DNA of 55,625 bases from a bacterium (GTDB lineage: Bacteria > Auribacterota > UBA3054 > JAAYZF01). Under the pieces are notes generated by a model. The model had not been told where the DNA came from and searched no databases. It worked only from the letters and a program-made list of their open reading frames with translations. The stretch spans positions 1 through 55,625 of the forward strand of contig JAAYZF010000159.1 of the NCBI GenBank assembly GCA_012514975.1. The letters run 5' to 3'. Shown here in pieces: positions 10,216-14,322 of the stretch (position 1 is the first letter of the stretch; each line of letters opens with the position of its first letter). The position numbers were made by a program, and so were the translations under genes.

Positions 10216-13200
10216 GTGAAGGCAATCATCGATATCGACTCAGGATCAGCTGTTCAAACCCTTAACCTCCAGCTCGGCGACGCAGGCGAGGTCATCCGCA
10301 TCACCCGCCTGTGCATCGATTCGAGCGGCGTGATCGAGCTGCACATCGAGTCCGCCGACGCCGAGGCGATCGCGCACGTGCCCGCACTGCGCAAGGCAGT
10401 CTCGGCCTGGGCGGGCGAGCATGCCACACAGGTGGTCGTCCGCGCGCGCTATGCGTCGGAACAATCGGTTGAGGACTACCTGAGGACGCACTGGCAGGAC
10501 ATCTGCTACGAGCTTCGTTCGTGCGGCGAGAAAGTGCTCGGGTTCCTCGAACCCTCGGCGTGGAGCGTTTCAAACGGCCATCTTACCATCAGCGTCTGCA
10601 GCGATCTCGCCGCCAAGGCCCTCGATGAGCGCGGCTGCGGCGCGATACTCCAGCAGTGCATCAAGCGGGATATCGGCAGCGAGTGCATCGTGTCGTTCGC
10701 CGCCGGCGATTTCACCGCGCAGATCGAGCAGAACCTCCAGCAACGCATGGAAGCGGCGCAGGAGGAAGCCCGCGCGCAGGCCGAGCAACAGAGCGCCGAA
10801 CGGGGCAGGGTGGTCTACGACACCGGCAAGTGCAAGGCCGGTGAACCGCAGGGCATACGCGACATCATCACCACCGGCGCCGGGCGCAAGCCCGTCACCA
10901 TCGACGGAAAGATCATCTCGTTCGACCCGCCCAGAGCGGGCAACGATTTCAGCCCCGCGCGCTTCAGCATCACCGACTACACCTCGTCGATCGAGTGCGT
11001 CATCTTCTCCGGCAGCCGCGGCGGGCCGAACAGCGGGCCGAAACAGGGGCCGCCCATCCCGGCGCTCGCGCCCGGCGAATGGGTGCGCGCCACCGGGTCG
11101 CTTGAGCTGCGGATGCGCGACCGCAACGCCCTGCCCGACCAGGCGCCCGAGTTCAACGTGCGCATCGAGCGCATCGAGCGTATTGACGACCCGGCCCGGC
11201 AGGACGCGGCGGCTGACAAGCGCGTCGAGCTCCACGCGCATACGAAGATGAGCCAGATGGACGGCGTGACCGATCTTTCCGAGCTCGTGGCCCGCGCGGC
11301 CAGGTGGGGCCATCCGGCCATCGGTATCACGGACCACGGCAATGTCCATTGCTTCCCCGACCTCCATTCGCTCGCGCGGAAACACAAGATCAAGGCGCTC
11401 TTCGGCATGGAAGCCTATCTCGCCAACCACCCGGCCGAGATCGTCGCCGCCGTCGCAGGAAGGAAAGGCTCGGGCGACAAGGGGCTGACGCGCGACGACA
11501 AGGCGGATTTCATGCAGAAGGTGTTCCACATCATCCTCTACGTGAAAAACGCGAAGGGCCTGCGCAACCTGTATGACCTGGTCACCCTGTCCCATTGCGA
11601 GTATTTCTACGGCAAGCCGCTCATACCGCGCGAAGTGCTCGAGGCGAAGCGCGAGGGCCTTGTCGTCGGCTCCGCGTGCGAACGCGGCGAAATCTACCGC
11701 CTGGCCCTCGAGCTGCATACGAAACGCATCACGCAGGCTGAATTCGAGGAACGCATCAGCCATGCAGCCCCGTTGTACGACTACTTCGAGATTCAGCCGC
11801 TCGCGAACAACCTGTTCTATGTAGCCAAGGGCATCCTGCAGTCGGAAGACGATCTCAAGGCGATCAACAGGAGAATCTGCGACGAGGGCGCGCGCCTTGG
11901 CAAGCCGGTCGCCGCCACCGGCGACGTCCATGTGCTCGATGAGCACGAAACGCTCTACCGCCGCATCCTCCACGTTGGCCAGGACTACGAAGCGGGCGGC
12001 GACGAGAGCGACACGCCCCTGTTCTTCCGCACGACGGGCGAGATGCTCGCCGAGTTCGCCTACCTGGGCGACGAGACGGCCCGCGCGGTCGTCATCGACA
12101 ACCCGCGCAGGATCATCGACGCGGTCGAGAGCGTCAGCCCGATCCCCTCCGGCTTCCATCCGCCCACAATCGACGGGTCGGAAGACGAGCTCACACGCCT
12201 GTGCGCCTCACGCTGCGCCGAGCTGTACGGAGAGCACCCGCATCCACTGGTGCTCAAACGGATGCACCGCGAGCTGGACGACATCATCCGCAACCATTTC
12301 GCCGACCTGTACATGCTCGCGCAGAAGCTCGTCAGGAAATCGCTCGATGACGGCTACATCGTCGGCTCGCGCGGCAGCGTCGGCTCGAGTTTCGTCGCGT
12401 TTCTCAGCGGCATCACCGAGGTGAACAGCCTGCCCGCGCATTACACCTGCCCGCGGTGCTTCCGCACCGAGTTCATCCACTTCGACGACAAGGGCGAGCC
12501 GCGCGCCGAGCCGCTCGACGGCATCGCCGTGGAAGTCGGCGTCGACCTCCCGCCCCGCGCGTGCCCTGCGTGCAAAACGGAGATGAACCGCGACGGATTC
12601 GACATTCCCTTCGAGACCTTCGTCGGCTTCGAGGGCAACAAGACGCCCGACATCGATCTGAACTTTGCCAGCGAGTATCAGTCGCGCGCCCATCAGTACG
12701 TCGAGCAGCTTTTCGGCAGGGAGTTTGTCTTCCGCGCAGGCACGATTGCCACGCTGCAGGACCGCACAACGTTCGGGTTCGTCAAGAAGTACCTCGAGCA
12801 GACGGGCGAGCAGTGGCCCGCCGCGGAGATCAACCGCATTGCGCTCGGGCTCACCGGCATCAAACGGACCACCGGGCAGCATCCGGGCGGCATGATCATC
12901 CTGCCCAAGAACAAAGCCATCACCGAGTTCACGCCCGTACACTTCCCTGCCAACGATGCGCGGAAGGGCCAGCAGACCACGCATTTCGACTATCACTCGA
13001 TGGAAGAGCAACTGCTCAAGCTCGACATCCTCGGCCATGACGACCCGACCAAGATTCGCCTGCTCACCGAGTACCTCGGCACGGATGTCACCGCGGTCCC
13101 GCTGAATGACAAGGCGACGCTGAGCATCTTCGCGGGCCTGTCGGCGCTCAACGTGCGCGAGCAGGACATCGGCACGCCGGTCGGCACGTTCGGCATCCCC

Positions 13201-14322
13201 GAGTTCGGCACCGAGTTCGTCCGCGGCATGCTCATCGACACGCGGCCAAAAACGTTTGCCGACCTGATCCGGATATCGGGTCTCAGCCACGGCACCGACG
13301 TGTGGCTGAACAACGCGCGCGACATCATCAAGGAGGGCCGTGCCACGCTCGCCCAGGTGATCTGCACACGCGACGACATCATGAACGGCCTCATTGCCAA
13401 GGGCATGGAACCACGCCGCGCGTTCAAAATCATGGAACAGGTGCGCAAGGGAAAAGGCCTGTCGCCCGATGACGTCAAACACATGCGGCAGCACGGCGTG
13501 CCCGAGTGGTACGTCGACTCGTGCCAGAAAATCAAGTACATGTTCCCCAAGGCCCATGCGGTGGCCTATGTGCTGAACGCAATGCGCGTCGCCTACTGCA
13601 AAGTACATCACCCGGTCGCCTACTATGCCACCATGTTCACCATCATGCGCGAAGCGGCGGACGCGGTGACGATTGCCAGGGGACGCGATGCGATCAAGGC
13701 GCGGCTGCAGGAACTGCTGCGCGCCGGCCGCCGCAATCTCAACGCCAATGAGCAGGATACCCTCAACGCACTCGAACTTGCGATGGAGATGACGTGCCGC
13801 GGCATCAGGATGCGCGCGGTGGACATCGACAAGTCCGAGGCGACGAAGTGCGTGATCGAGAACAATGAGATCATCCCGCCGTTCACCACATTCCCAGGCC
13901 TCGGCGCCTCCGCCGCCGAATCGGTCATCGAGGCGCGCGGCCGCGGCCCGTTCTCGAGCCGCGAGGATTTCCTCCGCCGCACGAAATGCAACCGCACGAT
14001 CGTCGAGCAGATGGCCGCCGCAGGCATCCTGTCTCACCTGGCCGAGAGCGACCAGATGGATTTGATGGACATGCTTGGCGGCGGGCAGCCAGCCCACGCG
14101 CCGGCAGGCACGCCGGCAGACGCCGCACACGAGAGCGCGCCCGTCAAGGCCGCGTCGGCTTCGGTCGATGACATCGCCGCGGCCGCGGTTGCCGATGCGG
14201 CGCCCGTTCATCCCGCGGAACCGGCGCCCGGGAAGAAGTCGCGCGCGAAAAAGGCCGCCGGCAGGAAACCCGAGCCGCCGCCAGCACCCCCTCCTGCTGC
14301 GCCGGAAGCATCACTGTTCTGA
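10216..14322 (+). CDS. polC: DNA polymerase III alpha subunit, PolC type, lacking the 3'-5' exonuclease insertion
   Basis: PolC hallmarks: an OB-like segment, PHP motifs [13 protein letters not shown] and [21 protein letters not shown], the Zn-finger HYTCPRC...CPACK, [24 protein letters not shown], and [12 protein letters not shown]. The maximal ORF starts at GTG 10054. I prefer GTG 10216 because a T-run hairpin and a TATAAC box lie between them. The start is uncertain. Confidence 0.9.
   Translation: [1368 protein letters not shown]

Follow-up and report, generated by a model that had tools for sequence, protein, structure and literature searches.

We describe here a PolC-type DNA polymerase III alpha subunit that lacks the 3'-5' exonuclease domain of DnaQ-like type (Exo) and retains the complete metal site of its PHP domain, in a bacterium of the phylum Auribacterota, not Bacillota (GTDB lineage Auribacterota; UBA3054; JAAYZF01). 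The gene, polC, occupies positions 10216..14322 of the + strand of a 55,625-nucleotide stretch of DNA (the whole of contig JAAYZF010000159.1, assembly GCA_012514975.1; hereafter the window). A preliminary description of this DNA had reported the absence of Exo and suggested that proofreading may come from the PHP domain or from a separate subunit. The observation is confirmed and its interpretation partly supported by the data presented below: of the two sources suggested, the PHP domain is the better one, while a separate subunit finds poor support, no DnaQ-like gene being conserved in the order. The whole explanation that we favor, i.e. a horizontally acquired PolC that has lost Exo, would proofread through its PHP domain and would work with a DnaE3-like DnaE partner, has in our estimate a probability of around 70%.

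A short linker in the place of the Exo domain

The polC coding sequence (1368 residues plus stop) passed the cut-offs of both NCBIfam PolC equivalogs, NF001688 (1325.3 bits, cut-off 873) and TIGR01405 (1203.8 bits, cut-off 1043.45), and each of the motifs cited in the preliminary description was found where it had been placed: FGMEAY at residues 396-401, ANHPAEIV...FMQKV at 403-436, FHIILYV at 437-443, HYTCPRC at 742-748, CPACK at 783-787 and GFDIPFETF...PDIDLNF at 794-817. The catalytic aspartates D812 and D814 (PDIDLNF) occupy columns that are invariant in 178/178 aligned PolCs, and HYTCPRC...CPACK aligns with the Cys motifs of the Geobacillus PolC 3F2B. An AlphaFold model of residues 225-1290 had a mean predicted local distance difference test score (pLDDT) of 91.5 and compared with the Geobacillus PolC structures 3F2C/3F2B at template modeling (TM) scores of 0.88/0.94, with a root mean square deviation of 2.7-2.8 Å. 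The open reading frame (ORF) at 10216-14322 is a genuine and intact PolC replicative polymerase.

The match of the protein to the NCBIfam PolC profile is split in two, and the second stretch restarts at profile position 612 of 1445, thereby leaving out the part of the model that corresponds to Exo. No RNase_T/DnaQ domain was found in the ORF by a Pfam scan, even at E<=1, and a hidden Markov model (HMM) specific for the PolC Exo, derived from the inserts of 120 PolCs that bear Exo, gave zero matches within it, in agreement with the absence of a DnaQ-like Exo claimed previously. The short segment that had been noticed between FGMEAY and the point where the PHP domain resumes is a linker of 34 residues (403-436; 11422..11523, + strand), which in an alignment with Exo-bearing and Exo-less PolCs occupies the site of the ~190-residue DnaQ-like Exo domain of canonical PolC. 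Alignment to PolC references, one of the checks proposed in the preliminary description, shows the linker replacing Exo, and the PolC of Geobacillus kaustophilus (3F2B), the best solved-structure match of the window PolC, aligns straight through the deletion site (E=8.6e-286). The distance from the GxE motif to GSAC is 84 residues here, compared with ~258 in Exo-bearing PolCs and 58-70 in the Exo-less PolCs of Firmicutes. Of the 11 PolCs of the order that were inspected, seven have a distance of 83-84 residues, as do over 20 independent proteins from metagenomes; the remaining four, from family f2, were left unscored by the motif search and align with the same short linker. The sequence pattern of the linker is also kept across the order, and a helix-loop-helix hairpin is predicted for it, modeled by AlphaFold as two short helices (model residues 183-194 and 202-209, pLDDT 82-95). 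The possibility that it represents a recognizable remnant of Exo was ruled out, given the lack of a match to either Pfam RNase_T or the PolC-Exo HMM. Since the same architecture is common to 11 genomes of the order, where orthologues had been proposed for comparison, and to the more than 20 metagenome proteins, these comparisons indicate that an assembly deletion can be ruled out as the origin of the missing domain.

PolC in one order of Auribacterota

The window belongs to a 4.1-Mb metagenome-assembled genome (MAG) consisting of 484 contigs and 76% complete. Genomes assigned to the same phylum have DnaE proteins that carry the names Candidatus Auribacterota/Aureabacteria and Candidatus Ancaeobacter aquaticus, and the host phylum is therefore Auribacterota. 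A survey of 79 genomes from the phylum found PolC in 16 of the 18 that make up the order of the window genome and in none of the 61 from other orders. The orthologues found elsewhere in the order have a similar length and identities of 49-60%. Because the PolC and DnaE trees agree in splitting family f2 from f1+f3+f4, the gene phylogenies indicate that PolC is vertically inherited since the base of the order. The GC content of polC is 64.6% and that of the genome 64.5%, with values at third codon positions (GC3) of 85% for polC and 83% for dnaE; recent horizontal transfer or carriage by a mobile element is ruled out by this native GC and GC3, the order-wide presence of the gene and the congruence of the gene trees.

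Two other kinds of polC copies were found in related genomes. In one MAG that is 64% complete, the orthologue (G012:C55:5916-9668) contains one in-frame TAG, which could be a sequencing error or the mark of a pseudogene. In addition, two genomes of family f3 harbor a second PolC paralogue of 910-916 residues (G002:C15:16731-19409, G006:C276:6400-9084; protein P0026) that begins at the PHP domain and stops before the helix-hairpin-helix (HhH) module, has nine of nine PHP ligands and the same linker, and is 62-66% identical to the window PolC, i.e. closer to it than the full-length PolC of the same genomes.

PHP sites of PolC and DnaE, and DnaQ-like proteins

The PHP domain of the window PolC (Pfam PHP, residues 338-527) is interrupted by the linker. 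According to the alignment columns, its N-terminal part (11227..11418, + strand) contributes the ligands H340, H342, D349, H374 and E399, and its C-terminal part (11524..11937, + strand) contributes H438 (in FHI), C488 (in GSAC), and D570 and H572 (in GDVH). The metal ligands described earlier as retained thus add up to nine of nine. All of them (pattern HHDHEH[C/H]DH) are kept in 18/18 members of the clade formed by the PolCs of the order and their metagenomic relatives and, in the wider sample, in 57/58 Exo-less PolCs compared with 72/120 Exo-bearing ones (Fisher p=3e-9, a value uncorrected for phylogeny and to be taken as indicative only). The sole exception to PHP retention among the Exo-less PolCs sampled is P0356, a 1178-residue protein from ENA metagenomes (9-member cluster) in which neither an Exo insert nor PHP ligands are apparent (HRSLENSDQ).

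The situation is the opposite in DnaE. The window genome has one DnaE (G000:C289:11678-15226), which keeps the polymerase motifs PDIDMDF and LLKMDLLGL and only two of the nine PHP ligands (HRRVEEGQA vs HHDHEHCDH); two or three of nine are left in every DnaE of the order, whereas all nine are present in the DnaEs used for comparison, from other Auribacterota, from seven Firmicutes with Exo-less PolC and from Acidobacteria-like matches. In the DnaE tree, this loss maps as a single change to the base of the order's clade (support 100, long stem). The DnaEs of the order form their own long-stemmed clade, in a tree that was built without a Bacilli DnaE3 reference, and those of family f2 are ~100 residues shorter at the C-terminus (1082 vs 1183 residues), which recalls the variability of the C-terminal domains in DnaE3. 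We found no support for a transfer of dnaE from Firmicutes together with polC: the DnaE of the order is 37-39% identical to Firmicute DnaE1 and 36-39% to the DnaE of other Auribacterota.

The search for dnaQ in the rest of the genome, also proposed previously, returned RNase_T only in the form of an oligoribonuclease (G000:C390:171-653), which matches the Orn equivalog with 236 bits. Orn is uncommon outside Proteobacteria and Actinobacteria. The PolC-Exo HMM, run against all six frames of this 76% complete genome, gave no match besides the oligoribonuclease. In the order as a whole, RNase_T matches were found in 4/18 genomes and in 0/3 of those with at least 90% completeness, compared with 32/61 genomes elsewhere in the phylum, while the seven Firmicutes with Exo-less PolC (7/7) have one to three stand-alone RNase_T proteins each. 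From these searches, no DnaQ-like or epsilon protein is conserved in the order. As the PHP site of DnaE is destroyed and a DnaQ-like protein is not conserved, the PHP domain of PolC is the only candidate proofreader in the order.

Origin of the clade and loss of Exo

Two unrooted PolC trees were built, one with 178 rows from which the Exo columns were removed and another with 75 rows under a site-heterogeneous model. In the former, the PolCs of the order and their metagenomic relatives form one clade (support 100), which is nested in a set of clostridial-type PolCs with and without Exo (support 97) and stands apart from a clade of 71 rows, 70 of them Exo-bearing, that holds the Bacilli PolC from Alloiococcus. 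The 75-row tree gave the same picture, the sister of the clade being the Exo-bearing P0252 (Shimodaira-Hasegawa-like approximate likelihood ratio test, SH-aLRT, 90), within a supported set of 17 rows. P0252 (L135:2053-6192, from a JGI metagenome contig) has a 170-residue eroded insert without DEDDh motifs, which matches the PolC-Exo HMM only at E=3e-11, and a PHP site with nine of nine ligands. Since this sister sequence has an eroded insert and the named Exo-less Firmicute clades are placed elsewhere in the tree, Exo loss in the order appears to be independent of that of the classical Exo-less Firmicute PolCs and may have been preceded by erosion of the insert. Across the tree, the Exo state has undergone at least 10-13 changes on well-supported branches; the insert has disappeared or eroded on many occasions.

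Some features of the genes surrounding these relatives were also noted. The gene for P0252 lies directly after proS, as in Firmicutes, and the corresponding ProS most resembles non-Firmicute sequences. P0349 (L134:6001-10224, GCA_040752395.1), an Exo-bearing PolC encoded in the order ispG-proS-polC in a MAG labeled Candidatus Hydrogenedentota, belongs to the supported set that also contains the clade of the window; PolC may be present in further non-Firmicute candidate phyla, or this bin may be mislabeled.

Other features of the PolC ORF

The start at 10216 matches the stored gene call (P0002, 1368 residues), and orthologues align from residue 1; a longer reading from a GTG at 10054 is possible, but without support. 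All features of the ORF are on the + strand. The Pfam domains follow the order N-terminal subdomain II (92-190), OB (227-321), PHP (338-527), Pol3 (658-1087) and HHH_6 (1196-1277). The PolC N-terminal subdomain II (10489..10785; PF11490, E=6.6e-9) is followed by an OB fold (10894..11178) that scored below the gathering threshold (PF01336, E=7e-4) and is modeled by AlphaFold as a beta-barrel of strands (model residues 2-98). After the PHP domain, the polymerase core with palm, thumb and fingers (12187..13476; PF07733, PF17657) contains the PolC Zn module HYTCPRC...CPACK (12439-12576, from the motif positions), and a tandem helix-hairpin-helix DNA-binding module is located at 13801..14046 (PF14579, E=2.5e-15).

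The protein ends in an Ala/Pro/Lys low-complexity tail (14083..14319) that finishes in EASLF, a motif at the extreme C-terminus resembling those that bind the beta-clamp. This region of ~80 residues varies strongly in length and composition across the PolCs of the order, and the complete PolCs of the clade terminate in QMSLF, QLSLF, DSLF, ASLF or LLF. The tail looks like a flexible tether with a terminal motif for which beta-clamp binding is deduced from the QxxLF consensus.

A proposed replisome and its alternatives

We propose that the ancestor of the order acquired polC horizontally, most likely from a clostridial-type (Bacillota-like) donor. The DnaQ-like Exo insert would have been lost independently of the Exo-less Firmicute PolCs, probably after eroding, and the 34-residue helical hairpin would be what was left. 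Given that the PHP site of PolC is intact, that 6-7 of the nine PHP ligands have disappeared from DnaE and that no epsilon is conserved, we infer that a division of labor is most likely, in which PolC would be in charge of bulk synthesis and of removing its own misincorporations, by means of a 3'-5' exonuclease that depends on metal and resides in the PHP domain, as in Mycobacterium and Thermus DnaE1, and DnaE would act as a non-proofreading, DnaE3-like partner. PHP-domain proofreading is established for the DnaE1 of these two genera (cited in PMC3919608, PMC12926913). In its strictest form, with the PHP domain of PolC as the sole replicative proofreader, polC derived from a clostridial-type donor, Exo discarded and the PHP site of the native DnaE lost, the proposal is a tentative one, its odds falling slightly short of even.

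Several points weigh against this explanation. We know of no PolC in which a PHP exonuclease has been demonstrated biochemically, and the mutator effect of a PHP mutation in Clostridium thermocellum, discussed below, could be structural. Small DEDDh exonucleases of ~190 residues appear sporadically in two genomes of the order (G004 and G007), and a divergent or unassembled proofreader could have escaped detection, since the completeness of the window genome is only 76% and MAGs make up most of the order's genomes. With respect to the origin, the trees are unrooted and the neighbors of the clade are mostly metagenome proteins, with one labeled Bacillota, one Clostridiales and one Hydrogenedentota, which makes both the donor and the direction of the transfer uncertain; the donor is made uncertain as well by the non-Firmicute appearance of some neighbors (the Hydrogenedentota label of P0349, the proS that adjoins the P0252 gene). 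P0252 as sister of the clade is supported only moderately (81-90).

Three alternatives, which together would account for roughly a quarter of the probability, have to be considered. A separate DnaQ-like (epsilon-type) exonuclease could proofread in trans, its gene being unassembled or its sequence too divergent to be detected. The incompleteness of the genome, the stand-alone RNase_T proteins of all seven Firmicutes and the DEDDh exonucleases of G004 and G007 are in line with this possibility, which we nevertheless regard as unlikely in view of the scarcity of RNase_T in the order (and its absence from the three most complete genomes), the identity of the single match in the window genome as an oligoribonuclease and the silence of the six-frame search. 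Besides, the score of the G004 protein falls well short of all epsilon cut-offs, and the PHP site of PolC has been strictly kept while that of DnaE decayed in the same genomes.

It is similarly improbable that there is no dedicated proofreader at all, the PHP domain of PolC being only structural and fidelity depending on base selection plus mismatch repair. Besides the lack of biochemical evidence mentioned above, P0356, with neither Exo nor PHP ligands, could be considered in its favor, and the PHP domain of Escherichia coli Pol III is reported to have a structural role (PMC3666897). However, a role that is only structural does not require all nine ligands, 6-7 of which have been lost in the otherwise conserved DnaE of the same genomes, and the site is complete in all but one of the Exo-less PolCs sampled against 60% of the Exo-bearing ones. 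Furthermore, the substitution C669Y at the PHP cysteine of C. thermocellum PolC, the equivalent of C488 here, gives rise to a ~30-fold mutator (bioRxiv 10.1101/2021.07.30.454558).

Finally, it is very improbable that the missing Exo results from faulty assembly or binning, or that the gene is a copy in decay or an accessory one (on a mobile element) instead of the chromosomal replicase. Despite the fragmentation of the source MAG and the truncated PolC paralogues of two related genomes, the ORF runs uninterrupted over its full length and has every catalytic motif, its architecture and linker recur in many metagenome contigs and in 11 genomes of the order that were assembled independently, the composition is native, the PolC and DnaE trees are congruent, and genes typical of non-Firmicutes (rpoN, PEP-CTERM and sulfatases, among others) lie on the same contig.

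Comparison with known systems and implications

PolC is usually treated as a marker of Firmicutes and as a Gram-positive-specific antibiotic target. Exo-less PolCs were described in a 2014 survey as 6% of PolCs, all in Clostridia and Negativicutes, bar one extra copy in Thermotogae, and all paired with DnaE1 (Timinskas, Balvociute, Timinskas and Venclovas, Nucleic Acids Research, 2014; PMC3919608). Our homology searches yielded hundreds of Exo-less PolCs in Syntrophomonadaceae, Negativicutes, Heliobacteria, Peptococcaceae, Limnochordia and others, and such proteins are abundant in metagenomes. As a type, Exo-less PolC is a published class and the bare observation is not new. What is new, as far as our literature search extends, is the context, which makes this an unusual variant: a non-Firmicute host, a conserved helical linker in the place of an Exo that was apparently lost independently, and a PHP domain as the only recognizable replicative proofreader. 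A limited literature search returned no paper describing PolC in Auribacterota or this replisome combination, which is absence of evidence only.

The PolC described here shares with those of Clostridia and Negativicutes (PMC3919608) the N-terminal domain, OB, PHP, Pol3 and HhH modules, the lack of a DnaQ-like insert, the nine PHP ligands and the co-occurrence with DnaE. It differs from them in its host, one order of Auribacterota, and in forming a separate clade with an apparently independent loss; its linker is longer and conserved (34 residues, against ~8-20 in Firmicutes), the PHP site of the partner DnaE is destroyed, with nine of nine ligands in the DnaE of the seven Firmicutes, and stand-alone RNase_T proteins, present in all seven, are mostly absent. 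The resemblance to the G. kaustophilus PolC construct (PDB 3F2B/3F2C/3F2D) extends through the deletion site, but the crystallized protein is an Exo-bearing enzyme with engineered deletions of the N-terminus and Exo, while the deletion here is natural and conserved, with the gap bridged by the predicted helical hairpin. The PolC plus DnaE3 replisome of Bacilli (Bacillus subtilis type) also combines two C-family polymerases, including a DnaE with a disrupted PHP metal site that presumably has no proofreading of its own; in that case PolC does have a DnaQ-like Exo, which also proofreads in trans, unlike the PolC of this order. With the DnaE1 of Mycobacterium tuberculosis and Thermus thermophilus the shared traits are a complete nine-residue PHP site and the lack of a canonical epsilon partner, although those enzymes are of the DnaE1 type and their activity has been demonstrated, whereas a PolC-type enzyme is concerned here and its activity is deduced.

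These results show PolC as a stable core gene in a PVC-like (Planctomycetes-Verrucomicrobia-Chlamydiae-like) candidate phylum, where a DnaE3-like decay of the resident DnaE would have followed the gain of PolC, in parallel with Bacilli. To our knowledge, the mode of proofreading of Exo-less PolC has never been tested; the case of Firmicutes is blurred by a DnaE1 with an active-looking PHP site and by the presence of stand-alone DnaQ-like proteins, and in this lineage the role of PHP as the PolC proofreader is directly testable with one protein. If our explanation is correct, the order would represent a fourth replisome configuration, made up of an Exo-less PolC and a PHP-dead, DnaE3-like DnaE without epsilon, which would have arisen by convergence outside Firmicutes and would offer a natural setting in which to test whether PHP proofreads in PolC.

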